Assembly: GCA_003427395.1 (NCBI GenBank)
Contig: BFEA01000032.1
Location: 586,328 to 629,803 of the forward strand
DNA from: Chara braunii
Taxonomy: Eukaryota > Plantae > Charophyceae
Length of the DNA: 43,476 nucleotides
Direction of reading: 5' to 3'
Shown: one piece after another, positions 10,381 through 41,145 of the stretch
How positions within the stretch are numbered: position 1 is the first letter of the stretch
How the letters are laid out: each line of letters opens with the position of its first letter
Made by a program: the position numbers and the translations under genes
Notes under the pieces: model-generated
Seen by the model: only the letters and a program-made list of their open reading frames with translations
The model's database searches: none
What the model was told of the DNA's origin: nothing

Positions 10381-11787
10381 ATGGAGAGCTGCAATCACGT
10401 TTAATTGCCTCGTCATTCCACAAACGACCCTTTTTGGGATGCCGTCTTCGTTTTTCTTAAATAGATGGCCGTACCTAACCACAAACTCTTCACTTTTTCG
10501 ACGAATATCACCTTTTACACTTTTCTCGCGTACCTCCTTACTCAACCCTAATCCGATATCTCTATATATCCCATCGTACTCATTTCCTCTAAAGGACTTT
10601 TTCATCCCACCGTCCTCGTCAGCTGGTACCAATGCCCGCAAATCTTCCTCAATTAATGCGTTGATCACAAAACACGTCCCGCCAGATACTCTGAGGACCT
10701 CATCGGCATGTCGGAAACCTTCTTGAATTGACAAGGGGTCGTCCGACAACCGAACGGAGTCAGAGAGTGCGAGGCTCATCATCTGCTCACCGGACCTCTC
10801 ACCCCATGGATCCTCCTCGATAAATAACTCTTTTTTCACCAGCTCAGGACGAACTTGATAAAAGTTGGGAGCGTTCCACATAGACCTCCTTTGTCGGCAA
10901 GATGCATCAACCAGATAATGGTAAGAATTTATACTTAGTTGACCTTCCTTGATCTCCAGAAATCCGTCAACAAGCATAGAGTCCTCTGGTCGAATCTTGG
11001 AGTTGTCCCAGTCGATTCTGCTTAGCCCGTCTGCTCGATTCTTCACGCCGGGTATCCTCTCAACTTCAAAATCGAACATCCAAATATAGGTAAGCCATCT
11101 TGCGATCGTCGGATCGGAAGGGGAATAATTTCTTAATGACTGAGCCAAGGCAGTCGGATCAACCCTCAGGACGAATCTTCGACCGAAAACATAATTGCGA
11201 AAAATTCTTAGGTAATGAAGCACCGCTAAAGTCTCTCTTTTGAACTGGGAATAGTTTCTCTCCGTGAGGTTGAGGGTTCTACTTTCAAACCTTAACGGAC
11301 GCTCGACCCCGCTCTCGTCCTTTTGAATAAGGACCCCTCCTAGAGTCGTAGGTCCTGCATCGGTTTCAATAATGAATGGTCGCTCTGGGTCGTTATCGAA
11401 GCATGAAACCCCGAGCACCATTCCTCCCCAGCGAAACTCAGCCTCTATGTCCTCAACAACTTTTTGTTGATCTGGTCCCCATTCCCAATCTTGGCCCTTA
11501 CGCACGCGTTTGCGTAAGTGCTCCACCCTTGCAGCAAAATGTTGGATGAAGATCCTCCAGAACCCACAAGTCCCGATAAAACTCCTTATCTCACTAACAG
11601 ACTTAAGCGGAGTAGGCGACTCTAAGATCTTATTCGTTTTCTTGGTATCCGGTCGACGACCTTTCTTGTCGCATAGGAATCCCAAGATCGTAGCTTCACT
11701 CATGCAGTGTCTGGATTTTACTCCACTCGCCGTGAGATTATACTTCTTTAATTTAGAACTTTTTTGATGTCGTGAATGTGATCCCAA
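10381..11787 (-). pseudogene. RT thumb/connection and RNase H of Gypsy pol
   Basis: LGFLCD, IRSFIGTCGFWRIFI, ETDAG..LGGVLIQ, ERNYSQFKRETLAV, NRADGLSR. Confidence 0.95.
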
Positions 11788-12620
11788 ACGAACTTACGTA
11801 TGCCTGGTTTCACTTCAGATTCATCCTTCTCCCTTGGTCCTGGAATCGACAAGTCATCGATATATGGTGAGGTCACGTCCGGACAAAGCGGTTGCATAAC
11901 CTTCATCATATATCGTTGCACGATAGCGACGACATTAGTCCAACCTTGAGACGCGGAACACATGTGAACCAACCCCCTAGGTGTATGCATTGCCGTCATA
12001 GGTCTATCAACCGTGTATAAAGGAAACTGATCATAGCCAGAATAAAGATCAATCAAGGTTATGATGGGTCTACTGGCGCTAGCTTCAGACAATTGATCCG
12101 CGTTTGGAAGTCCACCGGCATTCCGGACCGTCATCGTGTTCAATCTCTGCAAGTCTTATACCCACCGTAAGACAATGTTAGGTTTGTCAAAACAAAACCA
12201 TGGAGACGCATATGGTCCATAGGAGTAGTCGGCTACCTTCGTCTTGATTTTTCCATCTAGGTAGTCTACAACGTTCCGATGGTCATCCGGGTTAGGATAG
12301 CGTGGCCCCCTTATATTCCAAGGCTGGTGTGGTACTGTATGTATCCTAATCATCGGGATTTTATCAACGTAGAATCTTCCCCTCTCACCGCGACATCAAT
12401 CATGAGGTTTCTCTCTTCTGTTGTCAGGAAACCCTCTTCTCCAATGATCATCTCCTTAATTCTTTCACCGGTCAAACGACACGACTCTCTTTCACATTTT
12501 TCTCTCATCGCCCTAATCCACTCTCTCTCCTCCTTGTAATACACTTCTTCGTCGTGGGTGACTAGAACGGGGAGAGGCTTGGCTTTGTCAGCTACTTTCT
12601 TATACCGCCGCTTTGATCCA
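11748..12620 (-). pseudogene. Reverse transcriptase, with stops and frameshifts
   Basis: IRIHTVPHQPW, GPYASPWFCFDK..LRWV, DLYSGYDQ, QGWTN and YIDD motifs spread over split ORFs. Confidence 0.95.
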
Positions 12621-12702
12621 ACTCTAAGTCTCCCTCCTCTAAAAAAGACCCTTGCTTGGCTTGTGGGATCACACCTTCCCCACCAACTGACTGGGTGTGA
12701 GG

Positions 12703-13863
12703 TCAGTATGTTAAGAACATACTCCCCGTGCTACCACCTTCAAACACAATCTCAGTTAGTGTTTGTACAAGGTTTCGGTCGATCTCAGAGTGGGTTGAAA
12801 CGAATTCCAAAGCCTGTGAAACATCGGGAAGAGCTAAGGAAAACTCCCTCGGGTTGTCCCCATCGTCCTCCCCATATGACTCTTGTTCTCTCACCAATTG
12901 TTCTGCTTCCTCGAAGCTAAAGGATTCTGGATTCAACCTGTTCCTCGAATTCTTAGGCCCGGTGTTCAAGCACTTGATCACCTCGAAGTGTCCACACACT
13001 GGATCGCACAGTATTATGAAAATTGTCTCATCATGCTTATTGATGATGATGGACTCCGATCGGCATAAGAATGATCGTCCCAACATCACCCCATGCTCAA
13101 CCAGTGGCAACACGTAAAAATAAGACCGTACCTTTACCTTGCCGACCTGTACACTAACATTACTGGCAGTTCCACAGAAGGGCGTTGACCCTCCGGCGCA
13201 AACCAGAAATCCATTATCAGTGCGATCAAAATCAATCCCTAATTCTAGCGCCTCTTTTTCCCTTAGTATGTTCATCTCTGCTCCGGTGTCAACGAGCGCA
13301 AGATGTTGTGAAACACCTATCTTGACCATTACGTGTCCAGTCGCTATACACCTCCAATCCATCTTTGCTCCCGCAGGAGTCCAATTGGCCTCAGGTGGGA
13401 TTACCTTCCCTAGTTTAACCGTCATCACTTTTCGTCGAGTTGGTCTTTGCTTAAGCTCTTCCCAAATCTTTGGCGAGACTGCCAAAAATTCCTTGAGTGT
13501 TACCAAATCTCGATGACTCTTAAGTATCTTATCCACCATCTTCTCAATGTCGATCCCTTCCTCAATCGGAATCGTGTACCGGTTCTTCTTCTTCTGGTAC
13601 TCTTCCTCTTCTCCCTCATCCTTTTCCTTATCTTGATTCTCATCTAGACCTCGTTTCTGGGCGTGTAACCTTGCCTGACGCTCGTCCTCTACCCTTAATT
13701 TCTCATCTTCCGTGTCCAAGTCTTCTTCCACGATTACTACCGGCACCTCTTGTTGCGTCTTCGCACTGACAACGGGTGCGACTCGAGGTTGGATCCCCTT
13801 CTTAATCTTTTGTGCTTGAAGGACCACTGGTGACGTTCCTCTTCTGAGAACGGGCCTGTTCAA
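12703..13863 (-). pseudogene. Retroviral-type aspartic protease region
   Basis: LALVDTGAEMNIL active-site motif and VMLGRSFL. Confidence 0.9.
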
Positions 13864-15467
13864 GACGGAACGCGTACCCGCAGAGGCCGTCTGAAGGTGG
13901 GACGATGACGGTTTCTCCGTACGTAATGCTGACAGAGCGCCGCCAAAAGAGCCATGCCCCTTCTCCCATCGTGTCCACTAAGCAGAAACATATTCGGCAC
14001 GCCAGGCCAAACTCTTTCCATGTCGAGACCCAGTCTCATAACTTGGCTTCCAAATTCCTCTAAACCGCTTCTCGAGCTTGAGGCTTCTCGCACATCCCTT
14101 TCCTTTTCGGTCTTGCCCTTACTAACATCAAGCTTACTAACAATTGTATGGCGTGCAGCCTCTCTAGACTCAAGAATCTTCATTTCCTCTTTCGAGGTCA
14201 ACCGGTAAGTGCAGGGCATGGTCCGGTTCATGCGCCGAAACGCTTCCTTCCTCATTCCTCCTTCTATGTATGAATCGATAAAGTTCCCTTCGAAATCGAA
14301 CACCTCGCCTCGAATGTTCGTGTACACAATCCGATCCTCCTCATCTTTAGCGAGGGTCTGACAATATCGGACACCGTGCCCTCCTTGTGCGCAGTAGTTA
14401 CAATTTCAATCCTTATTACCGTAACCGCGACCATCTGAAACTCCCCGACCACGTCCCCGACCTCCTCCGCCTTGCGGCCGAAATTGTCGGGGCTCGGTAT
14501 CTTGAAATTGTCTTTGATGCTGATTGATAGTATCACAATTATCATTCCCATGACCACTCTTATTCTTGGATTGCTTTCCATTCGTACCTTACCCTCCCCG
14601 TGTTTGATTCATGGCCTTTCGTTCGGCCTTCGTCGCTTTCCAAGGAGATTCTTCTTCTTCTTACTTTTCACTATCTTCCTCGTCGGACTCTTCTTCCCTT
14701 TCTTTTCCTTTTCTCTTGCCGTCTTGTTGCCTCACCGTCAGTACCTTGCCACACAATCCCTCCTTCCTCATTTCTTTCATCATCATCCTAACATCCATAA
14801 TCGCACTGAACATCTTCTTATCCTTATCACAACTCACTAACTCATCCTCCTGCATTTTCCTTTGATTGCGCAGGAGGTGATAGAGCATTTGGTCGAAGTC
14901 ACCGACCTTAAGATTCTCCTTAATCTTATCCCAGTCGTACCTGGTAGTAAAACCCTTCATCAATTCTCTTTGCTCGACATCCGTGAAGTTGGTCAGAAAG
15001 ATAATGCATTTCATTTTATCGGGAAGATCGGGAACCCTCTTAGCTACCTTCTCAAATCTTTTTAGGAACCCTTCGATCGTCCCAAATTTCTCCCTACTTA
15101 CTTTACGAAGGTTAGAGACGTCCAACAATCCGTCTCCTAGCTGGTATTTTTCCAACATTCGTTCACGGAACGTTTTCCAGATTCGTGTCCTACACGCCAT
15201 CTCGCCGACTTCTTCTGCAAGATCAACGTGCACATAGCATTTTACTACTTCCAACATCTTTCATTTAGTCCATTGACGCACATGAGCATTTAACTCATAT
15301 TTTTCTAGCTAGTCTGTAACATTCTCCTGATGGAACAGAGGAACCTTGATTTTTGGAAACTTCTCATGTGACGTGGTGGTTTGCCGGATAAGCCTCGCGA
15401 ATTCCTGAATGTCATTGCGCCTCTCGTCGCCCAGACTATCGTTCTCATCGAGATTGGGGCTCCCCAT
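13860..15467 (-). pseudogene. gag: Gag (capsid plus CCHC nucleocapsid), disrupted
   Basis: ORFs 15309..15500 and 14661..15257 are in one frame separated by stops. CNYCAQGGHGVRYC zinc knuckle at 14361-14402. Homologous to 37864..38583 (LGDGLL, CIIFL/CVIFL). Confidence 0.85.
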
Positions 15468-15787: not shown

Positions 15788-18320
15788 CCTGTCGGACGCA
15801 ACGGCCCCCCTTCGCATCGTAGCGCATAAAGGGGGACCTCCCGACCGCATCACTCAGGAGTTTGATATCTTTATTTTTAGAGTCGGAATGCTTTCCCCAA
15901 AATTCATCGAGGTGAACAACGGGGTTTTGCCGCTCTAGCCGGGTGCATCAGTCGTACTTCTCGCATTTACCTACGACAGGTCAGGGTCCCGCGAGACACA
16001 ACTCGTCTTCTCTGAGGAGTTGTAACCATCCTCAGATGCGTATCCCTACCGAACTGCTGATCTACATACGAAAGTTTTTACATGCAATCGCAGAGGTAAA
16101 CTAGCCAGGGGCGTTTTGCTCGTTTCGCCATAGTACAGGCAATTCTTATAGGTGAATATAGAGCCGCTTTCCGGAAGATAGTATCATCGCAGCAGCAAAC
16201 ACACATGTGGGTTACATGAGACATTCAGACGTTACAATTAAACACGTGAACGTAAACAACTACGACACAAACAGATGTTGCTAACAACCATGCGAGAGTG
16301 GTAACCAGGTTACACGTAGATGTCGCATTAAAACACATGAGCGTTACAACCAAGCATTTTTGAAGTCGTTACCAAAAACACATACATGACGGCCAAAGCA
16401 CATAGAGGATGCAAACGAAGACATACAAATGCATCCTGCATATACCGAATCATCCCAAAGGCGGAAATATGACGACAGAGAACACGCCTTTGTTTTCACT
16501 ATCTCATAAAGTTGAAAGGAAAGTTTCCAAGAGCGTTCCACAATTGATGTATGTGAAAACTGACAAGAGGATCGCCTCCTCGATACCGTCGACAGTCACA
16601 ACTTGCAGAGACAAGAACTTACTGAATCAAATTTGCAAAGACAACTCCACATCGTAGCGATATGCCCAAGGCACTGTCTATTATTTTTCCTGTGACTCCC
16701 TGTTATCCAACCCACTCGCATCCCTCCTAGTACAGGGGCTATCGCCTAACTGCGAGCGACCACCAATCTTAAATATATACAGAAGAAAATAACAATTTTT
16801 ATGTGCCGCGTTCACCCTTCATCATGACACCAGCGAATTCATCGAGAGAAAAATGATAATCATAGGGGTAGGCTGGCCATGTTTTCTTGGTCGGCACAAC
16901 TGAGTCTTATCATGTTTTAGCCCTCTCGAGGGCGAAGCCCGATGATCCGATCGTAGGAGTCTAACTCGCTACCCTCCGCTGGACGGTCCACTCTAGGGGA
17001 ACCTATAGAGGGTGGACGACTCCTAGTGGCCGTAAATCGTGTGAGTCGCCCGAGCGCGTCTGTCTAGCCGGGTATGTCGCCGGATGAACGCCTCGTTAAT
17101 CGCCATCCTCCGCACTCATCCTTGCCATCATAGTCGTAGGTCGCCCGTGCTGTAGAGTTCCACCATTCGTCGCGCCAATGTCAACAGGACGGACCAGAAA
17201 GGTTCACCGAGGCGCTTAAGGTGTCGGGCGGAAGTGTCTCGAAGCCAAAGGAACACCAGTCGCGCTCCGGATTGTCTGAAGAGTACTCCAGCGGTGACTC
17301 GAGAGACAAGCTCCATGTTCGAGACACGATGGAAATACAATGTATGCCCCTGCAACTCGTTCGGACGTCAAATCACGTTCGGTCGAATCTCCGGTCGCTC
17401 TTCCGGAAGAAACCCACGTCCGTCGTTGACGACTCCGACAAAGTCGAGCCATCGAGTCGGAGTCGCATCGAACACCATTGACATCCTCTCCGCCTAGGCG
17501 TTGCGGTCTGCATCGTTCGTATCTCGAACCAAGAGATACCAGGGGATCGTCAGGTCGTGCTGAGCTCCAATGATCCCGCATCACAAGGACCCATCATCAG
17601 ATATGAAAGAGTTTTAGCAAATTCTCCTCCTGCCGCTGGAGAGCCTCATCGTCACATCTCTCCGCGACACGGAATCCGACCTCATACGGTCCCACGCGAT
17701 CGTAATGCTCGATGTATATGAATGACCCCTGCCGAGCGTGGTGGTTCCTCATAATGCGCAGGGACAACCACATGATCTCGTCCTCGAACTTGCGGTGGAT
17801 AGACTTGTTCACGACGTCGTAGACGACCCCGACGTCGAATCAATGCGTCTCCCTAAGGGGGCAGACGCCAACGCTTAGCACCAACTTCATGGCCGTTGTC
17901 ACAAATGCATAAATCCGTGGCGGGTCCTCAAGGGTCCCTTGGTCCGTCCCTGAGCTCCACCTCGGTCGGAAAGACGTCCGCGGGATGGAAGACCATGCGG
18001 CCGACTCTCGCCCATCCTTGCCTAAATCCTCCCACGGCTACAGCAGACGCCCTTGCCTCCATCTTGCTTGGAAACAGCATGGTGGTGGCGACTGTCGCGA
18101 CCCTTCGTCGGGAACTGCTCCAGGCGGCACCGCTTGCGGCGCCTGTGTTGTCTGCTACCCGCGCCCCCATTTCTCCGGCTGGCCGCCTCACTCCCTTTGC
18201 CAATATTCGGTACGATAGGCGATGCAGGCCACGACGAACCAACTTCCGTCGTCCTCTTAGAAAAGGAATCGGCGACACAAAAACCTTGTAGTGAAGTGAA
18301 GTATACGAGAAGCTGGGCTA

Positions 18321-18339
18321 CTTATATAGAATGACGTCA
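18321..18339 (-). promoter_or_regulatory. Candidate LTR TATA box with adjacent TGACGTCA
   Basis: Minus strand TGACGTCATTCTATATAAG followed by a pyrimidine-rich Inr-like stretch. Confidence 0.4.
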
Positions 18340-19074
18340 AGCGTGTGCACGCTAAATGTAGGGTGATTCCTATCGCTACTTAGTCCCACAAGGCCCAGGG
18401 GGATTGGAAGCTACCCATCCTTCCGTGGTACTCCTCAAGCCAGACGAGGCTGCTAGGTGCACGCTCATCGGAGGTATTTCCTATGCGCCGGATAGTTCAG
18501 AAAAGAAGGCAAAAGAGTAAAATAGTGGAGCCTTGTCGACCCGTTTCGCCGTGTCCTAGAATTTTTGTCGCGAGTAATAGGTGAGGGTCGCTTCATAGTA
18601 ATGTAATGGACGACCCACATCGTTGAATTCCTAATGCGGAGATCTCCTAACTGGACAAAGGAAGACAAAATCAATAACAAGATCCCTCCCTCGTGAGCCT
18701 CAATCGACCAAGGATCTTATGAACCGAAACAAAAAAAAACATTCGAGTTTTTCATAGGCGGAGCGTCTCATCCGCAAGACCCCAGTCCTCGTTGGACATA
18801 CAAAGTTTTTGCTCACATGCCTGCTACAAAAGTACAAAGCCAAGACATATTCCAAGGGTAGGCAGGAACACTCGGGGTCAGACAACACTTCCCTTTTCAC
18901 GTTTGAGCACACACAAACCAGCCTTTCTTTCTTTCAACTAAATATTCAAGGAAATAGAAATGGGGCAAGCAAAAGTGTGGTTTCACGTGGGGAGTGATGG
19001 GTCTGAGTCATTAACTGACCTTGAGTGAAGTGTCGCTGATGCCGACCGGCTCACCCAAAAAAGCCAAGTTGAAA

Positions 19075-19544
19075 NNNNNNNNNNNNNNNNNNNNNNNNNN
19101 NNNNNNNNNNNNNNNNNNNNNNNNNNNNNNNNNNNNNNNNNNNNNNNNNNNNNNNNNNNNNNNNNNNNNNNNNNNNNNNNNNNNNNNNNNNNNNNNNNNN
19201 NNNNNNNNNNNNNNNNNNNNNNNNNNNNNNNNNNNNNNNNNNNNNNNNNNNNNNNNNNNNNNNNNNNNNNNNNNNNNNNNNNNNNNNNNNNNNNNNNNNN
19301 NNNNNNNNNNNNNNNNNNNNNNNNNNNNNNNNNNNNNNNNNNNNNNNNNNNNNNNNNNNNNNNNNNNNNNNNNNNNNNNNNNNNNNNNNNNNNNNNNNNN
19401 NNNNNNNNNNNNNNNNNNNNNNNNNNNNNNNNNNNNNNNNNNNNNNNNNNNNNNNNNNNNNNNNNNNNNNNNNNNNNNNNNNNNNNNNNNNNNNNNNNNN
19501 NNNNNNNNNNNNNNNNNNNNNNNNNNNNNNNNNNNNNNNNNNNN
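19075..19544. other. Assembly gap
   Basis: Run of N. Confidence 1.
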
Positions 19545-20468
19545 ACGAGTGATGAGTGGCACCTTCGGCTCCAAATTGGTTCCGCCGGGCCCAATGTAAT
19601 GTCGGTTGTAGACGCCCTTCAAAATAAATCCCTTGGCGTCGAGATATCAAAAGTCAAATCTATAAGACCGTCGATGCGGCGCAACCCCAAATAGTCCCAA
19701 TGGTGCCAAGGACCGGTACCAAGGATTCCACCACGCTAAACATCAAAGACTTGCGTCGCTCTCGCTAAAAAAAAATCCCTTGCGTCATACCGCCACAAGT
19801 TTGCACCGGTGTTCGCCTTGAGCATGTGCCGCACTCGGCACCTCCCTTGGACCGCAACAACACACTTGGATCGCCACACAAAAATTACTTGGTGCCACCG
19901 CCATGAACCACTAACAAGCGGTTAAGCGGTACCGTCGCCTCGTCGCACCGCAATCCGGGACCCTTGCTTCCAAAAATAAAAGGCACCGCCTTGGTGTCAA
20001 AAACCAGGCCCAACGACGGTCCCACGATACTCTCACAAAATTATCTCGACACCCACGTACGACAAGGCTGGTAACGCTCCTTCGCATGCGGACGTAGCTT
20101 TGCCGCTTGATTATTCCGATAGCATGCACCCTTACGTCGGCCACGCCCAAGCTCAAAATAATAAAACCCGGCCCCCGGCCAAAGCTAAGTCCAAAATGTC
20201 ACTCCCTTGAGTCTTGGAGGTGAGCTCCCGCTCTAATGGAGTGGTCCTTAGCACATGTGCCGTAGGTCCGGTACCAACTCAAGGTGTTGGCAAGGTGCCT
20301 CCACCTTGTGGCTATGGTGGCTCCTCCTCCTCCTCTTGGCTCCAGCAGCTCCTCTAGTAGGCTCCGAGCAGCACTCCCAAAACACTCCCGCAACTCACAA
20401 ATGCCTTAGAGTGTGCGACCACTACCACAACACGTGCTCCTTGTGTGGCAATTGCAGGGCATTGCCTG

Positions 20469-20572
20469 TTTTTATAGTCGAGTTTGAGAGTGTGCCTCGA
20501 CACTCTAGCCCTTAGACAATAATTCGAGGTGGAGAGTGTGCCTCGACACTCTAGCCCTAGGCAATAATTCGA
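20469..20572 (-). promoter_or_regulatory. Second candidate TATA box with an upstream 46-bp tandem duplication
   Basis: CTATAAAAA on minus at 20469-20477; two copies of GAGAGTGTGCCTCGACACTCTAGCCCT at 20486 and 20532. Confidence 0.4.
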
Positions 20573-23157
20573 GATGGCCCTAGGCCTTCGATTTTTGTGA
20601 GATCGACGGTGTGACGTCGTCGCACCGCAGTCGCACGCTTAGTGCAACTGACTTTGACTATTCCCCTTTCTCTCGTTTTTATCTATTCAGGGTTAGTTCA
20701 ATTAGTCATCTCGTACGTCTCACGAGATGGCTGACACTGTCTCATTTCTGAATCTGACCATTATTCCAGGAGTTATGAATTCCTAAAGTTTGACGTACCT
20801 GGCTATTCTTCCCAGTGTCGGTACGTCAGGGAAAGGCTGGACTTAGTTCCCTATGCGTCCTAAGCCCTTCTTTCCCTTTGATGGGTTCCCCGCCACGAGA
20901 TCCTTTGATCTCAATGGTGGGAAGCCCCTTATGATGCCTCCTTTCCTACTCCCATGTGCTGCTGTCCTTTTCTCGGCATTCAACCCTACCCCAGGATCAG
21001 AAAGATCCAACCTGGGGGTGTTGAGTTTGCAGGGTGGTCATAATGGCTCAGCTGAGGCCAAAGGAGGGGCCATAATGGCTGTTACTTCTTCCACCGCAGC
21101 CACGGCCTTTTCGTGATGCTAAATCAGGTGCCCAAGGTCGAACTCGGGTGTAGCATGGGGGTGGGCACCCGTTTTTCCTTCAGGCGCAAGGCTACCTAAT
21201 GTGTAAAAAGGGAGTGAATCTTCTGCTAGAACATAGGGAGATACCCTCCCACTGATATGGGCGGCTGTAGAGAAACGTTACTAACAAAAAAAAGAAAGAA
21301 AACAACAAAAAAACAATAAAATAAAATAAAGAAACAAAACAACAGAAATCCGTTAGAAACGGATCCAGTTTGTCGCCTTGCGGTCCCCCCCCCCACGCCA
21401 TCTGGCATCTCATAGTTTGTCTGTTTCTTTTGTTTTTCTTTCTGTCCTTTTTAATTTTATTTTATTTCGTCCGTTTTTCTTTTTAACGCGTTTTCTCATT
21501 TTTCTTTCCCCGTAGCCCACGGTTCGATTCCTGATTACGTAGGCGCGCCGGGAGAAAATTTGAATCGTTTTTATTTTCTCGTTTCCTTTTTCGTCCCCCC
21601 CCGTTTCCCTCTAATCGCGCCTCTCCATTCTCGCTGCCCACAGTTCGAGTCTCGCTGCGTCAGAGGAGGGTTTTAGAAGTTGTTTTGTTTTTGGCGGCGG
21701 ACTCCGTTTCGTGCGATTTCCCAGGCGGCGTGGCGGATGCCGCCCTGTGCCTTAATCGAGTCGGGCGCCTTCGGCCTTCCTATTGCCCGCTAAAACATGG
21801 CGTGCGTGGGCTCGATCCGAGTATCTGGTGGTTATCGGACCACCCGCAGACCCATTGGACTAACTCTTTTCCTGGTGTAAGGAGGAGCATCGTAGGTACT
21901 TGAGTTGGCAGGCGTGGTGTCTTATCGGTACTTCCGAGGTGACTTCCCTTCATATTCAGTGGCCCTGCTCGAAAAGGGAGCTAGCCGGCGGGCGGATTTC
22001 CGGCCGCGCGATTTTCCCAGATCGCGTGGTTCTCGGAGAGGTGTTCTTCTGCTTCACGAAAAGGAGCTAGTCCGCCGGTTGGTGGTGCGAGGGCTCGATC
22101 CCTGTGTCTGGTACTCAATAGTCCGCCACCTAAACCGACTGGGCTAGCCCTTACTTATGTATAGGTAGGGCACCACTTCTATGTGAGTGGCGGCGCCAGG
22201 CGCATTTCCGCTTTTCGAAAATGGAGCCAGCCTGGTTGGAGTCGTGCGGGCTTGATCCCTGCATCTGGTATTTAGTAGCCCGCCACCCAAACCGACTGGG
22301 CTGGCCTTTACCACTGTAGCGGAACCCTTAGTTTTCCCCGTTATCACGCCGCCTTCAGACCATTGTTCAGCGCGACCGTCTTCAACTGTCGAGCTCTGAA
22401 TCGCGTGACCGAGCTCTTTAGGTTATCGCGCATTGTCCTAGCGGTAGGAACGTCGGGGAATGATTGGTCCCGACGTGCCTATCTTTGCGGCTCCTTCTCA
22501 TATCACTTGAACACCCATTCTGCCTTAGTTAAATAGCATGGCGCGCACACAGACGACGTAGGAGCGGGGTTGAGTCCTATAGGGGTTGCGGTAGGGTAGG
22601 TTCTTTTCCGATAGTCTTTTCGGATAGGCCTTTAATTCGAGTGCCTCCTTCTTAGACTTCCCCCCTTTCTCCTTTGTCGCAGTCGTGCTTCAGGTATTTC
22701 TTACGTTGGTCCTTTCTTCCGATGGACCCTGAATTGCGCGGCCGATGGGCCACGCCGTGACCTTTTGTTCAGGTCGTAGTGCGTCGTCCTGATGGAGGGG
22801 GCGAGGGGGAATGGTAGCCCCCCGTCGTCGCGGCTTCCTTCCTTTAGTAGTTTCCGCCGCGGTATGCCTTGGTAGCGTCAACTGCCCTTCCTATAGCCAC
22901 TTGGGTGCCCAACCCTAGAGTCTAAATAACAGATTTGGAAGAGACAGACGCGGGGTCAATACCCGACAAGAAAAGAAATGTAAATATGTATAGGGGGTAG
23001 GGATACCCATGAAATCTTTTGCCGCGCCGCGGCAGATTATCTTTACTTTGTCTTTTACTTGCTTACCAACACCCTGTCATCTTACGGATAGAACGGCGCC
23101 TTCCGGCGAGCCGTCAAAACGCCGGCGGATACCCTTGTAAGGGTTTCTGCCCCGACA

Positions 23158-23872
23158 CCGTAATTTCTTCTCCTCGCTAGCGGTCAACGCAAGATTGGCG
23201 ATCTCCAGGTACGAGATGCCCCTAACCCCTTGCGCACACCTCCTAATCAAGTCCCTGTCCACCTCACCAGCTTGCCCGGAGAACATAGGCTTGATGAATT
23301 CTCCAATGCACGCCCACCACTCGAAGTCTGTGTCCTCTCTCAATTCCCAACACTGGGTGAATAGTTCGTGCCCCCCTTCTTCACCTAATGGAAATTTCTC
23401 TATCACCTGTCCCCTAAATCGGACCCTCCTTACGGTCGCGTCGTCAGCATAGAGCAGTCGGTAGGCCCAGGTCAGGATCTCCCAAGTCCTCCCGTGATCC
23501 GCCCTTAGAACTTCTGACCTTCCTCGGTATTCTACCCTATCGATCAGGCTCTCCCCGGCAGTGCCTCCTCTCAATCTCCTCAACCGGTCCAGGGCCCTTC
23601 TGGCGATGCCTAGGGGGTCCTTTCCTTCTGCCAATTCAGTCGCAAAGATTAGTCGGTCGTCGGGGTACAAAAAAATTAGCCTTTCTAGTGCAGTTGCCAC
23701 CCTCGCATGCCACTAAGAACCTGACCACCGGCTCTTGCCCGTAGATTTCAAAGAACTCGGTAGACACAACTCCTTCCCCTCTAACCTTAGGGAGGGTTAA
23801 TCCATACCTCTCTCCCGTTTTCCAACCCCTTTCCAAGATACCAAAAGGGTCCCCCCTGTCGTATCTAATCAT
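23158..23872 (-). pseudogene. Accessory family Y member, frameshifted near 23700 and truncated by element 1
   Basis: LIFLYPDDRLIFATELAEGKDPLGIARRALDRL aligns with QIFLSKEGYIEIACSLLAEKDPLWDSRAMRDRL of 24536..25288. Confidence 0.65.
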
Positions 23873-23879
23873 AGGGGTC

Positions 23880-24356
23880 TCACCTCACGCCGGACAGCCT
23901 TGTGGCGGCCTCTACCAGCGACTCCTCGCACTTAGTGCGACCGGTCTCTCTGTCCTCTCGCAGAGTTTGGCGCAAAGCCTTTTCGTACTCCCCCGTCCTA
24001 TCCCAAAATCGGGTCTCCACAAGGTGCGTCCTAGATGTCAGCGGGGTTCCTAGATACCTAGAGTCTTCTTCGAACCTTCTCTCTACTTCCAGCAAAGGTT
24101 CCCTCCAATTCCTAGAGGACCTCACTCCACCCGCGTCTCTAATGTGGATCGAAAAGCTAGCTTGCGTGGTCCAGCTCCTCCTTTTCCACAACGTCAGCCG
24201 CCGGACCTCCACTATAAATTCCTTGTCGGCACGGATCACCTGATCCTCTCCCAACTCGGGGATAAGCTCCGCACTTCCCTCGACCCTAACTTCTCTACCG
24301 TCCTCGTAGGTCTCCAACTCCCAACGAATTCTATTGGAGACGAACGAAGCTCTCAT
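23880..24356 (-). CDS. Unknown accessory ORF, 158 aa, possibly a partial family Y member
   Basis: ATG 4 nt after the upstream stop; VIRADKEFIVEVRRLTLWK resembles VIREGAYAWVRARRLTWK. Confidence 0.55.
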   Translation of the reverse strand: MRASFVSNRIRWELETYEDGREVRVEGSAELIPELGEDQVIRADKEFIVEVRRLTLWKRRSWTTQASFSIHIRDAGGVRSSRNWREPLLEVERRFEEDSRYLGTPLTSRTHLVETRFWDRTGEYEKALRQTLREDRETGRTKCEESLVEAATRLSGVR

Positions 24357-24360
24357 CCCC

Positions 24361-24549
24361 TCACCGCGCGAGAAGATCTATCGTTACTTCATCGAGGATA
24401 GTGATTGCCGCTGTCTCAAGTAGCTTGATCCTAGCTAAGGACACAGGCCTAGCCCTCCTTTCTTCCTCCCAGCATAGCGCGAGGATCCGGTGAACTTCTT
24501 CTTTTACCCTTTCTAACCCCTCTAGTCCGTCCAGGTCAAGCCCGCTCAT
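24361..24549 (-). CDS. Small helical accessory ORF, 62 aa
   Basis: ATG overlaps the end of the upstream ORF by 14 nt and the ORF exactly fills the gap between neighbours. Confidence 0.5.
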   Translation of the reverse strand: MSGLDLDGLEGLERVKEEVHRILALCWEEERRARPVSLARIKLLETAAITILDEVTIDLLAR

Positions 24550-25288
24550 CCTCTAGCTTCCGTCGGTGACAGGCAATCACGACTCGAATGAGGGTCGAGG
24601 GGTCTATCCCCTCTAATTCCCCTTCGCAGAGCTTCCCTAAGTAGCTCCACGATATCTTAGACTCCCTGGCGTGCCGGCCCCACCCTTCAAAGGCGTACGT
24701 CGGGTCCTCTAGAGTCGACCAATCGTCTCTATAAGGATCCCGAAAACACCATGTTAGCAAGGTGTGTAGGTCCGACCCTGTGAACCGAAACTGGCCTAGA
24801 ATCGACACCCTCCTTCCTATTGCCCTTATGACGTCTTCGGAGGGGTAGATTCGTTTGAGGATGAAACAAGGAACCCCCACTGGCTCACTGGAGGTGAATA
24901 GTGAGATCGCCTCCCACCCTTCGTAGGTCACTCGGTACTCTACTAGCCCTTCTTCGAGAGGCCTTACGTCCCTTACGAGTTCCTCTAGACGGTCCCTCAT
25001 GGCTCGTGAGTCCCAGAGAGGGTCTTTCTCCGCTAGCAGGCTGCATGCTATCTCTATATACCCTTCCTTTGAGAGGAATATTTGGGCCTCGCTGATCACT
25101 ATTCCTCCCTCACTACTTACCGAGAATCGTATGAACGCCTTCCCACGTCGGATCCCTCCTTCTTCCTTTAAGAGGATTATTGCCTGCCCTTCCAACCTGG
25201 CTCTTGATAGGGTAACTTGGACCACTTCCTCGGTGCCTCCTACGGGTGCTATCGAGGCCCAGAGAGATCCTGGGACCCTCCTTATCAT
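24536..25288 (-). CDS. Accessory family Y protein, 250 aa, unknown function
   Basis: Intact ORF; ATGA start/stop overlap with the upstream gene; GGIRRG..QIFL..VPCFIL motifs shared with paralogs. Confidence 0.7.
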   Translation of the reverse strand: MIRRVPGSLWASIAPVGGTEEVVQVTLSRARLEGQAIILLKEEGGIRRGKAFIRFSVSSEGGIVISEAQIFLSKEGYIEIACSLLAEKDPLWDSRAMRDRLEELVRDVRPLEEGLVEYRVTYEGWEAISLFTSSEPVGVPCFILKRIYPSEDVIRAIGRRVSILGQFRFTGSDLHTLLTWCFRDPYRDDWSTLEDPTYAFEGWGRHARESKISWSYLGKLCEGELEGIDPSTLIRVVIACHRRKLEDERA

Positions 25289-26013
25289 CGACCCTCAAAG
25301 CCTCTTCGGTTGGCTACTTGCTCTTCCCCGAATAGGCGGGCGTACAGGACGTCAGCCACGTGTGCCCAAATTCCTTCAAATTCCCTAAGCCTTTCGAATA
25401 TAGCTCATAACTCCTCTCTCGGGGGAACCCCTGCGTCCACGCACTACGTGTAGAGCCAGTACAAACCCCTAGCGCGCACCCTGGACTCCCGAGCCGCTCT
25501 AAGTACTTCTACTACTCGCTCCTTCGGGTCTCTAAAAAATGAGTCCGTCAAGAATTTGGGAAAGTTCGCGTGACGGACTCCTGACGCGCGAGGGACCTCA
25601 CCGGGCTCGGCGAAGGACACTAGTGTCCACGACTCGAAAGTCCCTTCCTCGTAGTTAGCTAACACTAAGTTGTTTGCCACAAGCCTCGCGGCTTCTCTGT
25701 ATTCAAAATGCATTAGGAGCCCGGTTACCAACCCCCTCCAAACTTCGGTCCACACCTCTTCGTTGAGGAAGATTGTAGCCCGGATCTCTAGGAAACGACC
25801 AAGGTCGGGTGGGCCTCCTCTTTCCACACCTTCCTTCCAAGTGAGTCTTCGAGCTCGAACCCACGCGTAGGCCCCTTCTCTGATCACTCCCCCTTTCTCA
25901 ATGCTCATCCAGTAAGGGGTCACTCGAGGGTCCCCCGGGGTCAAGACTTTCCCTGTGTCACTAGCCTGTATCGACTCTACCGCTCCGTTCTCATTGAGCA
26001 CGAATCTCACCAT
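25285..26013 (-). pseudogene. Accessory family Y member, 242 codons with two premature stops
   Basis: Reading through stops gives LYWLYT*CVDAGVPPREEL*AIFERL, matching LWTLYMHCIDRGIPPRRKLWGIFNRL of 25991..26677. Confidence 0.75.
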
Positions 26014-26677
26014 CTACCGATGTTGTTTTGAAAACCCACCGGTGGTATCTCTCTGGTGAGAGAGCGAAGGGTTTCTCTAAAGACTCCAATCTATTAAAAA
26101 TGCCCCAAAGCTTCCTGCGTGGAGGGATACCCCGATCGATGCAGTGCATATACAGCGTCCACAGGGCCCCGAAGGGTAACCCCAGACTCCTTCCCCTTTC
26201 CAGAAACCTCACTATCTTTCCTTCGTCAGTCCCTTGGAACAGGAAAGACGACACCTTCACAGTTAACGGATAGCACGCCCTCGGAAGCTCTTCCTTTCCT
26301 GCCAACCTCTCCTTCTCTATAGCCGTAAACGCAAATCGCTCTCGAACCCTACTTATCCATCCCTCTCTTATTTCCCTCGCTTCTCGTAACAACCTATCCA
26401 ACCCACCCCCTTGTCCCAGGACCAGGGGCACTATGACCTTCGCCCAAGCCTCGGGGGCTACGAAGATAACCGAGGTTACCTTGAGACACCTCTCACCCTC
26501 TCGGTCCTCAACTTTTTTTGACTCTATCCACACGAACTCTCCGCTCACGGTGGCCTGACCTCCGTCTATCCTTTCCCAATTGGGAATCTCCCTATTGCTC
26601 GGGATCAATCTAAGGGTGTTACTGGCTTCCAAGGAGGACTCGACAAAGCGTCCCTGTTTCCTATCGTGGAACACCAT
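25991..26677 (-). CDS. Accessory family Y protein, 228 aa
   Basis: Intact ORF; GEFVWIES...VIFV...IVPLVLG matches GEQTFIWIES...VILYI...IINLVLG in element 3. Confidence 0.75.
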   Translation of the reverse strand: MVFHDRKQGRFVESSLEASNTLRLIPSNREIPNWERIDGGQATVSGEFVWIESKKVEDREGERCLKVTSVIFVAPEAWAKVIVPLVLGQGGGLDRLLREAREIREGWISRVRERFAFTAIEKERLAGKEELPRACYPLTVKVSSFLFQGTDEGKIVRFLERGRSLGLPFGALWTLYMHCIDRGIPPRRKLWGIFNRLESLEKPFALSPERYHRWVFKTTSVDGEIRAQ

Positions 26678-26681
26678 TCAT

Positions 26682-27005
26682 TTAAAACATTCTCTGAGGC
26701 ACTCCGAAGACCCTTTGGCAGCCGTAATCTCGCCCGCCCTCGCGGTCCCGAACCGATTCCCTAAAAATCCCCGCGCGAATCCTACAGGCTTTGATCCCGT
26801 ATGGTACAGGGTTATCCACGCAGTAGGTGTTGTACCAATGAAGCGACCTAACGGAGAGTTGCCACCCCCTCTCTCGCACTATGGACCGCACAACCCTCTC
26901 GTACCGCTCCTCCTCCCCGTTCACCCTTCGGAAAACGAACGACGGGAATATGGCCCTGATGCACTCTGTGGCGCGAGGGTACGCCTCGTCTCGAGTGCAG
27001 GTCAC
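26682..27005 (-). CDS. Unknown accessory ORF, ~107 aa, start uncertain
   Basis: Stop lies 4 nt before the next ATG; same strand and composition as the cassette; GTG start. Confidence 0.4.
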   Translation of the reverse strand: MTCTRDEAYPRATECIRAIFPSFVFRRVNGEEERYERVVRSIVRERGWQLSVRSLHWYNTYCVDNPVPYGIKACRIRAGIFRESVRDREGGRDYGCQRVFGVPQRMF

Positions 27006-27417
27006 CCTTACCTCAATTGGTGGGCAGTCTCTAAGGGGCTCCGCCTAAAAAATCTGTCTCAATATCGGACCCGCTCGTGCCTCCCAATGATCCGCACGTT
27101 ACCAACCTAGGACTAAGTGAGTGACGTAATCGACCCTGGCCTCCTTACTCAAATAGACAGTTCCCTCCGCACGGACCACCGTTCATCTGGGTCTCTTCCC
27201 GTTCTAGGGCCTGTTCCGGGACCACCTGTCCCCTTCCCAAGTTCCTACAGTGAAACGAGCCCAAAGGAAAACCCCTTGTTCTAACTCTTACCCCCTCTCA
27301 CGGCCGGCTAGATACCTCTCGGTTCAGTGGTCCAAAGGGACGCTAAAGCACTCCCTGTCTTTGCTTAAATCAACTTTCTCTATTCGAACCCCTTCTTCTC
27401 CAGTACCTTCTACGATC

Positions 27418-27783
27418 CTAACCATCCCCTTGGACTATCTCCTCTATGGTTTGAACTAGTGCTCTCCACCCGTCCGATCCGTCTAGGAAGGCTTCCGGAA
27501 TAGAAGGAACAGGCCTACTTCCTCGTGAATACGTCCTACACCCCAACGAGTAGAAGTAGTTAATCTCGTAAGCCCCCAACAGTTGCCTCTCGAGCTGTGC
27601 GTGACCGACCGCTTCCTCCCAGCTATCCAAATATCCTACCTCTCTATCAACACCCTCTTCTGTGTACAAGGCTACGTCGAAATGGCCGGTCCACCAGTAG
27701 AAAGTATAGCACCACACGTCTACCCCACCTCGATCACCCACACTAATTCTCGCAGGTTCAAACTCCTGAGCCCTCAAACTCAT
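27418..27783 (-). CDS. Accessory family X protein, 121 aa
   Basis: Clear paralog of 27800..28138 (GGVDVWCY.F..WTG.FDV, YFYSLG..TY.RG.RP). Confidence 0.75.
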   Translation of the reverse strand: MSLRAQEFEPARISVGDRGGVDVWCYTFYWWTGHFDVALYTEEGVDREVGYLDSWEEAVGHAQLERQLLGAYEINYFYSLGCRTYSRGSRPVPSIPEAFLDGSDGWRALVQTIEEIVQGDG

Positions 27784-29764: not shown

Positions 29765-29783
29765 ATCCCCGGCAACGGCGCCA
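29765..29783 (-). promoter_or_regulatory. Primer binding site, tRNA-Asp
   Basis: TGGCGCCGTTGCCGGGGAT, 3 nt after CGACA. Confidence 0.9.
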
Positions 29784-30144
29784 CTTTGTCGCGTCCACAC
29801 CTCCCTCGAGACCCTCACCCGCCCCGGTCGGTCCCGCGGCCCGGTTTCCGAGTGTTACCCTGTCCCGTCGACGCACACCCCCGACCCGGTACCTGTGACC
29901 GTAGGCCCGCGACTCCGACCCCTGTTTCCGGACGGACGGCCAAGGCCCCCTTGTCTCCCCCCCGTTACACCCCCTCTTTTTCCCGCTATGTTCTTTGCGC
30001 AGTTAAGTAGGTCGTCGTGCATTCCCCGCCGGCCCCTTTCCAACTGGTCGGGCGACTAAGCAGGTACGACAGAGCCCAACAGAGTCGGAAACAACAGGTG
30101 CCACAGAGCCCAACAGGGATGGTAACAACAGGATTCAAAGAATA

Positions 30145-30785
30145 GAGGTTCAGGCTCGATATGGACAACAAATTCAAAGAGGACCGAGAGCACGACCTTC
30201 GAACTTGGATTCCCTAACACCACCGAATCTGATCCGGAAAGCCTCCGAACTTGCTTCCACACAGACGCTCTCTGCGCGAACTGTTTATGCAACCCTCTAG
30301 ATCTTCAGAGGTAAAAAAAAAGGAAAGAAGAGAGGTTCAGACTCGACACGGACAGCAAATTCAAAAAGGAACGAGAGCACGACCTTCGAACTTGGATTCC
30401 CTCGTATCACCGATTCTGATCCGGAAAGACTCCGAACTTGCTTCCACACAGGCGCTCTCTGCGCAAACCGTTTATGCAACTCTCTAGATTTTTAGAGGTA
30501 AAAAAAAAAAAAAAAGCAAAGAAGAGAGGTTCAAAATCGACATGGACAACAAATTCAAAGAGGAACGAGAGCGCGACCTTCGAACTTGGATTCCCTCGCA
30601 TCACCGATTCTGATCCGGAAAGACTCCGAACTTGCTTCCACACAGGCCCTCTCTGCGCAAACCGTTTATTCAACTCTGTAGATCTTCAAAGGTAAAAAAC
30701 AAAAAAAAGAAGAGAGGTTCAAACTCGACATGGACAGCAAATTCAAAGAGGAACGAGAGCGCGACCATCGAACTTGGACTCCCTC
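30145..30785. repeat. ~190-bp tandem repeat, about 3.4 copies
   Basis: AGAGGTTCA...TCGACATGGACA.CAAATTCAAAGAGG units near 30145, 30331, 30525 and 30713. Confidence 0.9.
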
Positions 30786-31825
30786 ACATTACTGGCACGG
30801 AAACTGGGGGGAGGAACGAGAGCGCTGACAGCCCGCTCGCAAGAAACCCGGTTCCCAAAGGGGAAGTCTTCCAACCCCGCGGCACACTCGGGGGCCCTCT
30901 AGGCGGCAGCACAAGGTGTGGCGGGCGCAGGACGAAAGACTCATGTTGGACGGAGACGCCGAGCTCAGAAGGGACTGTCAACAAGAGCCTCGAACGTGGT
31001 CTTCGTATGTCGTGTAGATGCGGAGCTTAAAGGACTTCGAACTCCCCTAGGCCAGCTTTTGAAGATTCTTCCGCGACTGACAGTGCCCCCGCCGCATGAG
31101 CGCGTGGCGTTCTCCGAAGTTCAAAAGCAGTTCAAGCTCGAAGCGGTCGCGAACTCGAGAGGGGACCACGAACCCGGGCTCGACGCGTATGTAGGCTCGC
31201 TTTGGAGCCGGGAGTCAGCGCTAGCCTTCGATGGCTGGGCGTCGACAACTTTCCTTCACTCGCGTTCGCCGACCGGTAACCCTTAGGAAACGGTCTTGAA
31301 GTTGGCCGCCTGCGCGCTCGCGATGATTGGCGGATTCTCACTCTCTCTCTCTTTCCTTTCTTGCCGCTCTCTCCTTCTCTCTCTCTTCCTCCTCTCTTGT
31401 TTCCTCCTCTCTCTCTTCTTTCTCTCACTTTCTCTCTCTCTCTCTCTTTCTCTCCTCTTTTCCTCTCCGTCAGCTCCCGCCAGCCGTCGTGCCTAAGCAC
31501 ACTGTTCCCCACTTCCCACCCGAGTCTTGACTCCCCCGTACCCGATCGACCCGTCTTCTCCCATTGCGCACAGGCTCTCCCCTCGTTCTTTGGGCGCGTT
31601 CAAGCGCCGCGAGCGCTCTCCCCCTGTTTGCTCCCTCTTAGGTAGCTCGACGGAGTTCTAAGCTACAGCTAACGTGAGAAACACCCACCATGTACGCGAA
31701 CACCGAAGGTTTCCCTCCTTCCTTCCCAAAGCCCGCTCGCGACGAGCGCTCCCTCGACACCGTGCGTTCAAACACCGCCTTTCCTTCTTTCTGACGATCT
31801 CTACCCCGCTAGGTAAGGTAGCCCT

Positions 31826-31826
31826 T

Positions 31827-31885
<59 letters not shown>

Positions 31886-32139
31886 NNNNNNNNNNNNNNN
31901 NNNNNNNNNNNNNNNNNNNNNNNNNNNNNNNNNNNNNNNNNNNNNNNNNNNNNNNNNNNNNNNNNNNNNNNNNNNNNNNNNNNNNNNNNNNNNNNNNNNN
32001 NNNNNNNNNNNNNNNNNNNNNNNNNNNNNNNNNNNNNNNNNNNNNNNNNNNNNNNNNNNNNNNNNNNNNNNNNNNNNNNNNNNNNNNNNNNNNNNNNNNN
32101 NNNNNNNNNNNNNNNNNNNNNNNNNNNNNNNNNNNNNNN

Positions 32140-32220
<81 letters not shown>
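31826..32220. repeat. (CT)n microsatellite containing assembly gap 31886-32139
   Basis: Directly visible; a degenerate CT tract also lies at 31336-31465. Confidence 0.95.
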
Positions 32221-32224
<4 letters not shown>

Positions 32225-33877
32225 TCCCCTTCGCGCGTGCTCACTGTCCCCTCCCGTTCTCGCGGTGCCGAGCGCAATGCTCCGGAGCCCGCCCGGCGTG
32301 CTGAGTGCAAGCCCGTGCACGTGCCTCGTGCTTCGTCCCTCCTCCCTTCTCCTCTCTCTCTCTCTCTCTCTCGTCGTCTGGCTCGCTGCCGCTCACTACC
32401 CGCGCTTCCATGTGAGCAAGCTCCATGCGCTGTGACCAACGAGCGCTCCTCCTCCTCTCCCTCTCTCCCTGTCTCGATCGCGCATCGTGTGAGTTGACGG
32501 GCCCTGTCCGCTGTAGGTACGCTCCCCGCATTCTTGAGCCTGCCCCCCCTTTATACCCCACCGATCTCGTTTGGTGCTCGTACTTCTTTCTGTGGCCCGG
32601 GGCGTATGGTTCTTAAGGCGGCAAAGGTTGAAATTTTCAATCCATTTTTGAACTTTCGTTCTTCATTTCATACTTCCTCCCACTCCCGCTTTCCCTCTCC
32701 CATCATCCATTCTTGCATGCCTGCTCCAATAGAATCCAATCTACCTCCGATGGTCGGATCGTTCTTAAGCAAGGACCCTCTTCGCTGCGCCTCCGCTGAC
32801 GGAAACCCCCGCTCGTACGTGCGCGCGTAACCTTGCTTGCATGTTTGAACAGTCAAATCTCTCTTTCGCAGCGGGATCCTGATTATTCTTGAAAATCAAG
32901 ATTGCTCCCCGGTCCCCCCCTTTTAAGGCGTATCAGCATCCAACCCTCCTTGTCTGCATTGGTACAAATGTTTCTCCTAATGTTCGGTGAGGGGTCAGCC
33001 ACAGAAACAGTTACCAAGAAAGTCAAGAACTCTCGCTTATTCGTAACTGTTTCGAAGGTGGCCCACGATCTGGCCAGATTACCATCAAGAGCCAGTCTGT
33101 GGCCTCACCATGGCGGAACCACGGACGGTTAAGGCTACAGACTTGGCTAGTCTCTCCGCCTTCCATCATGCTATTCTCCCTTCCCTGGTATTGTCCTGGT
33201 CGTACTCCTTCTTAGTGTCCTTGCTCCTTTTCGATCGCCCATCCCGTTTTTTATGTCCCTTGATCGCTTTCCGCAAGAGCTCAGGCGTTCTTGAATATCC
33301 ATAGGGCTTGACAGTCCGGACAAGCTACCCGCACCTTGTTTTTTGCCAAGTCGCTGCTTCTCCTCGTCGAAACCCCACCGTTGCGGTCCTTGCGCGATCT
33401 ATCGGCCTGGCTACTCCCGCGCCGATCGTTTCGACTCCCTTTACTCAGCACCGAGGTAGGCCCTATGTTGATCGAGCCGACTCGCATCTTGTAACATCAA
33501 CCCCAGATCTCCGGTAGGGTTTACAGTCGCCGGTATTCGCTGGTCCTACCGCTTCCCTCGGTGAGTCTTCTTCGTCAAGGTTTTCTTCCTCGAATCGTCG
33601 GTGACTACCCCCAACACGCATTCTCTTCGCGCGCCTTTGAAAACTCTGACTTTGGGTCCGCTCTCAGCCCTGCTTACGATCCGGCGTCCGCTGCCTGTTT
33701 CCCTGCTTGTTAAACGTTAGCAAAAAAAAAAAAAAAAAAAAACTCTAAAAAAAAACCCTTCAAGGCTCGTCTATTCATGCATCAACCACGCAAAACCAAT
33801 AAAACAACCCAAAAAACAAATCACGATTTTCCCAAAGAGTGCACTCGGCTGGTAGCGCTAACATTTGGAATGAATAT

Positions 33878-34055
33878 GGATGACCCTAACCAGGTTGTCC
33901 GATGGAAATGGATAAGGATGACCCTAACCAGGCTGTCCGATGGAAATGGATAAGGATGACCCTAACCAGGCTGTCCGACGAAAATGGATAAGGATAGCCC
34001 TAACCAGGCTGTCCGATTGAAATGGATAAGAATGACCCTAACCAGGTTGTTCGGA
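33878..34055. repeat. 38-bp tandem repeat, about 4.6 copies
   Basis: GGATGACCCTAACCAGGCTGTCCGATGGAAATGGATAA at 33878, 33916, 33954, 33992 and 34030. Confidence 0.95.
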
Positions 34056-34139
34056 ATGGCCCCTGACAAGGGTCATTCTTTGGAATTGGCACTGGGGTCC
34101 CCTTGCATAGTTGTGTGAGATGGATGAGATTGAGAAGAG

Positions 34140-34390
34140 ATGAGCATTGGAAAATATAATGGACTCAGCTTTGGAAAAAATATCTGACTCAGCTTTGAAA
34201 AAAATATTGGACTCAGCCTTGGAAAAGATATTGGACTCAGCATTGAAAGAGATATTGGATTGAGCCTTGGAAAAGATATTGGATTGAGCTTTGGAATTGG
34301 ATTGAGCATTGGAAGTGGACTGAGCTTTGGGATTGAGATTGAGCCTTGGAATTGGATAGGGCATCGGAATTGAACGAGCATTGGAAATTG
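34140..34390. repeat. 24/18-bp minisatellite
   Basis: Units like AGCCTTGGAAAAGATATTGGACTC. Confidence 0.85.
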
Positions 34391-35344
34391 CATTGCACAA
34401 ATAGGGGACCCTAGGCAACTTGAAATGGACATGGAAATAGCATTGAAATGGATTTCTCTTTTCTTCTAGTCCTTGACCTCAGCAAAGGAGGGTACCAGTG
34501 CTTGCACCGCAACCTCAAGACCTCTACCCCTTTCGGGGGGAAAGTCTCAGCGTGACCTATTCCTCTTGAAAGGGGATGAGGGTTAAAGGACCAAGGCACC
34601 TACCACTTGGATCGGTGCGGGACGTCCGGGACTGACCCCGACAATGAGCTCTAGTCGGGGAGTTCAAATTGCGCCTCGTATTGAGAGCCTAAACGTCAAA
34701 GGGTGAGAGGACCAAATGGGCGAGAGAGTCATTCTTATTCTAGTCTATTTCGTTACTCTCCAACCACACGCCATACCATAGAGGGGTGGCATGGCCGTTT
34801 GGGTCGGACCTCGGCTGCCCGCACTAAGTTGGGCGGCACTGTCCAAGGGGAGGGGCTGGGCGAGGTACCGTGTGGAGGCCACCACCACCACGGAGCACTG
34901 ACACTGCCCTGCCGGAACATTACAACCGTTTCGGGAGTAATTGCGAGGTCTTCGTAACTGCACTCGCGGACTAATAGAGAGTCTCAACTCTCTTGAAAGG
35001 AAGAGGCCGGATCCAGAAAACTACCACTCTGGAGGAACGATTCGCGTGGAAAGCTCTTACGGATAGACGAGGCCCTGGAAGGTTTGGAGTGGATCAGCCT
35101 GCTAGATGTGAGGAGGAACCTCAGTGTTGGTGCTCGCCACGTAATAGTAAAAGGTCGGATCGAGTAGGAGGATGAGGCGCCACCCGCTGGGGAGGAACTG
35201 ATCACTCTTCTCTTGTGAAGCGGATGGGCTTGTGTCCTTGACTGCGGTCGGCGGGTCAAAGGTCTGCGTACCTCCGAGTGAGAACCAGTCGCGCGATGGA
35301 GACATCGCGTTTTGAGGGGGGGGAAGGTGTGTCATCTAACAATA

Positions 35345-39516: not shown

Positions 39517-39598
39517 CCTGATATCCTATTATAACAGTCAAAGAAAGAACCTTTCCCTTCTTAGTAACCATTCAATTTCTCATTTCTTAATAAATTTT

Positions 39599-41143: not shown

Positions 41144-41145
41144 CC

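Follow-up and report, generated by a model that had tools for sequence, protein, structure and literature searches.

A probable accessory protein family expanded in tandem ahead of gag in Ty3/Gypsy retrotransposons of Chara braunii

Extra open reading frames (ORFs) in plant retrotransposons of the long terminal repeat (LTR) type are well known, heterogeneous and unexplained, as passages of several studies relate (PMC6317226, PMC4408406, PMC7264820, PMC11963269); there are usually one or two per element, thought to be late arrivals in land plants (passages of PMC4408406 and PMC6317226). Here we describe a much larger and paralog-rich cassette, apparently under selection, in a charophyte alga, Chara braunii, where Gypsy is the main LTR class (10.1101/835561, in part). 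The cassette lies in a stretch of 43,476 nucleotides (contig BFEA01000032.1, positions 586,328 to 629,803), here called the window and numbered from its first letter. It consists of nine ORFs, is 99% coding with junctions of -23 to +16 nt, and is preceded by an LTR-type end and a primer site for tRNA-Asp, lying ahead of gag in the Chara element. Five of its ORFs encode members of a single family, family Y, which is absent from Pfam, PHROGs and PDB. Family Y is very probably a new family of LTR-retrotransposon accessory proteins, tandemly expanded in at least two element lineages and forming a selected accessory cassette.

In kind, family Y resembles a 5′ extra ORF but is without the domains that mark the known ones. 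The Ogre/Tat elements (OTA superclade) likewise have a sense ORF between their primer-binding site (PBS) and gag, long LTRs containing tandem repeats and a non-Met tRNA primer, as described in parts of PMC6317226 and PMC4408406. Ogre elements have one or two extra ORFs according to passages of PMC6431247, often with a plant mobile domain (PMD), whereas the Chara cassette has nine, five of them paralogs, and no Pfam domain; PMD (PF10536), Transposase_28 (PF04195) and Athila ORF-1 (PF03078) domains were absent from all Y domains by Pfam search. Because early Tat elements (moss, lineage I-II) are without extra ORFs in the account given in part of PMC4408406, the Chara cassette is probably an acquisition separate from those of Ogre/Tat. 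Athila, Calypso and FIDEL share the identical tRNA-Asp PBS, whose string is listed for FIDEL in Table 1 of PMC2844528, and an extra gene beside gag-pol; in the parts of that source bearing on it, the extra ORF is found 3′ of pol and with membrane segments, whereas Y stands on the 5′ side of gag and no membrane segment is common to its members. Y does not take the env-like position between pol and the 3′ LTR: in two elements of the window, A and C, it lies between PBS and gag, and of 11 database proteins with both Y and gag, 10 have Y first. Extra ORFs kept in most copies are also described, in passages of the respective papers, for the antisense TRP28 ORFs of Retand (PMC11963269) and for bdelloid LTR elements, which capture varied ORF3 types (PMC5408684). 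Those are 3′ of pol and antisense or enzymatic, whereas Y lies on the 5′ side in sense orientation and shows no recognisable active site. The literature searched, with the Chara genome paper, Repbase and the REXdb supplements outside its coverage, held no account of this cassette.

The first-pass annotation of the window had proposed an unrecognised family of four to five divergent tandem paralogs at 23158..26677. We find five true paralogs of about 230-250 aa on the minus strand, between 27425 and 23158. The proposed span holds four of them; Y6 falls just outside it, and two ORFs inside it are unrelated. The family members and these two ORFs are as follows.

26682..27425, minus strand: Y6, paralog of 247 codons with six in-frame stops
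25991..26677, minus strand: Y5, intact paralog of 228 aa, 72-82% identical to the database proteins P0003-P0005
25285..26013, minus strand: Y4, paralog of 242 codons with two stops, 79% identical to P0012
24536..25288, minus strand: Y3, intact paralog of 250 aa
24361..24549, minus strand: 62-aa cassette ORF, not family Y; its own frame is free of stops, whereas the two others have 7 and 5
23880..24356, minus strand: 158-aa cassette ORF between Y3 and Y1, not family Y; 82% identical to part of P0005
23158..23872, minus strand: Y1, paralog with a frameshift near 23.7 kb; 3′ end truncated at 23157 by the LTR of a separate element, B

Only Y5 and Y3 are intact in this copy; Y4, Y6 and Y1 are broken. 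The 62-aa and 158-aa ORFs had no family match.

Several lines of evidence establish the family. First, all ORFs of the region were compared pairwise against 300 shuffles, broken frames being read through as X, which gave z-scores of 26 (Y5-Y4), 16 (Y6-Y4), 8.6 (Y6-Y3) and 7.8 (Y3-Y1), with none of the 300 shuffles as high in any of these pairs. Y5-Y3, Y4-Y3 and Y4-Y1 showed no pairwise significance against the same 300 shuffles, so the family forms a chain. Second, profile comparison among the ORFs, which the first-pass annotation had put forward as a check, recovers Y4 (50 bits), Y6 (30), Y5 (28) and Y3 (14.5) when each is left out in turn. The C-terminal part of Y1 is marginal here (5.3 bits, compared with 5.2 for the best of 200 shuffles). 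Its membership is nevertheless secured because its database orthologues match both Y3 (P0006-P0008, E 1e-10 to 7e-12) and a deep profile built without Y1 sequences (two orthologues at 26 bits, P 2e-10). Third, a profile from seven database proteins of other element lineages finds Y6 (26 bits), Y5 (25), Y4 (16) and Y3 (14), a check that is only partly independent since those seeds came from the window's own profile.

The similarity resides in the protein, as had been claimed: at the DNA level blastn (word 7) matches the paralogs to one another only over the common Y5/Y4 overlap, and third codon positions are near random (0.26-0.35). The four motifs quoted in support of the family were all located on the minus strand, at 26164, 25464, 25036 and 23634. 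Conservation across the wider family (29 rows) is strongest at F-x-W-x-E, (T)-x-Y-L-S, L-A-x-G and P-x-F. The Cys in the LxxLYxxC motif of the plan drawn by eye is not conserved in these rows.

The cassette is assigned to an LTR retrotransposon, element A, whose upstream parts are the following.

29766..29783, minus strand: PBS of element A, complementary to tRNA-Asp
29787..34643, minus strand: putative 5′ LTR of element A, ending in CA; left end set from the TG-start motif only; holds an N gap

The PBS, at 29783, stands three bases behind the CA end, which is of the form also seen in elements B and C. No second LTR copy of element A occurs within the window; element B replaces its 3′ part at 23157. 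In one study, 3,973 contigs of one DNA run map to 7.5 kb, 1,922 of them 90-95% alike, and at two places 603 and 608 diverged contigs were counted per 600 bases. By these features element A is a multi-copy Ty3/Gypsy LTR retrotransposon, its downstream gag and pol being assigned from database gene models. Near the 3′ end of the putative LTR is a 194-bp tandem repeat (30136-30789; 3.4 copies, 88% matches), and further tandem arrays of 38, 24 and 18 bp occupy 33869-34395.

A second element in the window, C, holds homologues of the cassette proteins.

39599..40265, minus strand: Ca, family Y copy of element C, split over two frames; 39 and 87 bits against the database-seed profile
38857..39516, minus strand: Cb, intact family Y copy of element C, 219 aa, directly upstream of gag; 151 bits
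37864..38583, minus strand: gag-like ORF of element C

Element C is bounded by an LTR pair (41146-42226 and 36090-37169, 93% alike) with a PBS at 41143, and Ca and Cb lie inside this pair, between PBS and gag. With two Y copies and a gag-like ORF over 36090-42226 (minus strand), it looks non-autonomous because it is without pol. A 47-bp tandem array surrounds it (35883-36088 and 42326-42576).

Database relatives have the same arrangement. A profile search of 1.84 billion representative proteins gave 27 matches at E up to 0.001. The organism look-up covered 20 of the 26 new matches plus P0003, leaving out 6, and 19 of these 21 are Chara braunii gene models, P0003 included; every named homologue (19/19) is from Chara. 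Protease, reverse transcriptase (RT), RNase H or integrase is carried by 8 of the 26 database proteins. Both Y and gag occur in 11 of the 27, with Y first in 10; in the eleventh, P0016, blastp places a Y1-like piece ahead of its gag. The gag profile used included pieces of three of these proteins; eight are supported by blastp comparison with the gags of the window itself. P0005 runs through Y5 (82% identity), the 158-aa ORF, the end of Y1, an acidic stretch, gag and protease. Five database proteins hold two to three Y domains. P0010, P0011, P0016, P0020 and P0028 represent another Chara element lineage, with two to three tandem Y domains before gag, of which P0011 and P0028 continue into RNase H and integrase. 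A FastTree tree of 29 rows, with truncated rows included and the fragments Ca and Y1 and ten database proteins excluded, separates the element A paralogs, the P0010-type lineage and the C-type copies into three groups. Separate tandem expansions in different element lineages are likely, though not proven, because the basal support in this rough tree is weak (0.38, 0.74 and 1.0).

The cassette is cargo of an LTR retrotransposon: a PBS lies directly upstream, the element C homologues lie inside an LTR pair and gag follows in 10 of the 11 database cases. These same observations, together with the hundreds of diverged contigs per 600 bases, the synonymous excess among copies described below and the exclusively Chara origin of the named homologues, make it very improbable that Y belongs to the host as a gene array, derives as a fragment from an endogenous virus or consists of inert captured DNA, and came to lie among transposons by chance. 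That alternative draws on the absence of the cassette's own gag-pol from the window, on the three broken copies among five and on P0004, in which Y and DUF659 domains occur together in one protein. The identity of Y as a host gene array or viral insert is largely refuted; Y lies between the PBS and gag of Chara Ty3/Gypsy elements.

Long-term coding selection, also claimed from the protein similarity, is borne out for Y1. In its frame, 24 of the 30 differences that vary among copies are third-position and synonymous (35% expected for transitions; p 7e-7), compared with 1 of the 9 differences private to this copy (Fisher p 4e-4). This test used 39 of 96 listed differences; 40 were shown, and one beyond the frameshift was dropped. 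Because the synonymous excess is found among copies and not among private differences, Y1 is held under purifying selection across copies while this copy decays. In the other ORFs, 3 of 24 mostly private differences are synonymous; open frames, orthologues of 72-82% identity and saturated third positions give indirect support to coding selection there as well. Faint transcription of other copies of the element is present in one of three RNA libraries (X6): only 2 of its 243 reads are 99% alike, and first mates are mostly plus strand over Y4-Y5, which is the sense orientation if the library is of the usual stranded kind.

The proteins themselves resemble nothing catalogued. Family Y had no match in Pfam, whether searched with the window ORFs, the 26 database proteins or, at E values as high as 10, with 21 members of the alignment, and none in PHROGs, PDB sequences or the ESM Atlas. 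AlphaFold on seven rows predicts three antiparallel strands, then two helices and one more strand, and four helices that make up the C-terminal part, with a predicted local distance difference test (pLDDT) score of 54; the N-terminal model scores 53. No polar residue is invariant in 29 rows, and neither Cys nor His has a conserved column. Conservation is highest in columns of Gly, Leu, Ala, Pro, Phe and Trp, and the commonest polar ones are Glu (20 of 27 rows) and Ser (21 of 28). On this pattern, family Y is likely a binding or structural protein rather than an enzyme.

What such a protein would bind admits a second answer: the same cassette could do another job, with Y binding the element's single-stranded RNA or DNA (in chaperoning, export, packaging or TAV-like reinitiation) and having no host-defence target. 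The strand-strand-helix order and the (I/L)-Y-L-S-x-E motif of Y resemble, by eye, the PC4 and Pur-alpha families. Fold searches with the Y models returned nothing informative. With the N-terminal model, PC4 fills the top three PDB rows of the Foldseek list (E 0.32-0.34, the best PDB match being at 0.32) and Borrelia Pur-alpha stands at ranks 14 and 35; none of these matches is significant, and their TM-scores are 0.15-0.20 with root-mean-square deviations of 9-11. Net charge is divided, Y5 and Y6 being basic but Y3, Y4, Y1 and Cb neutral or acidic. Nine ORFs ahead of gag call for special means of expression (PMC5972666, in part), which suits such a role; however, a housekeeping function gives no obvious cause for five paralogs at 20-30% identity. 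We regard nucleic-acid binding of this kind as unlikely.

Still less probable, in our estimate, is that the Y proteins serve the structure or movement of a virus-like particle, for example in passage through plasmodesmata, the element acting as a simple plant virus. Y adjoins gag, the ORFs are packed as in caulimoviruses (passages of PMC5972666), P0005 has the end of Y1, an acidic stretch and then gag, and env-like ORFs of plants have been suggested to act at plasmodesmata (part of PMC7264820). Against this, the best 19-residue hydropathy is 0.42-1.15 in six of eight family pieces and exceeds 1.6 in only two (Y5, 1.78; N-terminal part of Ca, 1.63), so that no membrane segment is common to these eight pieces, and element B has gag-pol without Y.

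We favour instead, at a probability of about one-half, a joint explanation in which the Y proteins are selected, tandem-duplicated accessory proteins of Chara Ty3/Gypsy elements, encoded between PBS and gag and likely acting as non-enzymatic binders that likely weaken host control. Of this, the position, the paralogy, the many copies and the selection on Y1 are shown, together with a second element of the window and at least one further lineage that carry one to three copies; the steps that follow are proposed. The LTR promoter would give a single RNA with the cassette ahead of gag, and the abutting ORFs would be translated by termination-reinitiation or from spliced RNAs. Each Y protein would form a small beta-sheet/helix domain with a helical bundle and bind either a factor of the host or nucleic acid of the element itself, and duplication with divergence would broaden the range of targets. 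Taken by itself, action against host control through binding is a tentative proposal by analogy. It is favoured because of duplication with divergence to 20-30% identity, copy number that varies between lineages and absence from element B, a pattern that fits dispensable counter-defence genes better than core machinery. The host-conflict role first suggested for the array would fit a transposon accessory gene. Our working model is VANC of the VANDAL DNA transposons, likewise an accessory protein outside the core chemistry; plant transposon accessory proteins include this anti-silencing factor and have more predicted host contacts than core enzymes, according to parts of PMC13547354. As described there, VANC is a relative of MAIN and a protein of DNA transposons, whereas Y has no such domain and shows no PMD match by sequence.

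Several observations weigh against the joint explanation. The fold predictions are low in confidence (pLDDT 54 and 53). Element A's own gag, pol and 3′ LTR fall outside the window, and its 5′ LTR is putative. Selection was tested on Y1 only, with the 39 of 96 differences, and the selection measured was purifying, not positive. RNA is scarce: 243 reads of 16.7 million in X6, 8 in X5 and 7 in X7. Related elements exist without the cassette, one being element B, whose gag-pol comes without Y. In 3 of the 27 proteins (P0006, P0008 and P0016) a Y domain follows pol domains; gene models running across nested elements would explain these, and Y downstream of pol may also occur in some elements. Finally, the database proteins are ab initio models that splice ORFs together, which supports the order of the parts and not their fusion.

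A further elaboration appears doubtful to us: a virus-like accessory region in which one LTR-driven RNA carries up to nine ORFs coupled by serial termination-reinitiation, with family Y expanded independently in several lineages as an anti-silencing gene accordion, as host-range genes are in large DNA viruses. TAV-driven reinitiation in caulimoviruses and coupled stop-start translation in SART1 likewise involve long consecutive ORFs, either abutting or with an overlap of a few bases (PMC5972666, in part). In contrast to those systems, the Chara ORFs are paralogs, no TAV homologue was found among them, and the coupling is read from sequence only.

The eight stop-start junctions offer material for testing polycistronic translation in a green-plant cell. 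The intact, soluble-looking Y5, Y3 and Cb, with the natural series of paralogs, offer the same for testing what extra ORFs do. At least 19 'hypothetical' Chara gene models are, on this evidence, transposon parts.

Element B, a separate Gypsy element that abuts the end of Y1, occupies the following positions.

15790..23157, minus strand: 5′ LTR region of element B
9340..15260, minus strand: gag, protease, RT, RNase H and integrase of element B, from Pfam and a six-frame profile search

Neither of these searches found a Y ORF ahead of its gag. Its LTR copies match at 91-93% (20706-23157 with 4018-6729), its PBS is at 15787, and contigs show many different flanks at its LTR end. A short, open-looking frame of about 80 codons in the 5′ LTR region (17600-17890, minus strand) is not family Y and has no counterpart in the other LTR copy. 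Downstream of the element B integrase lies a decayed second gag-like frame (8493-9083, minus strand).
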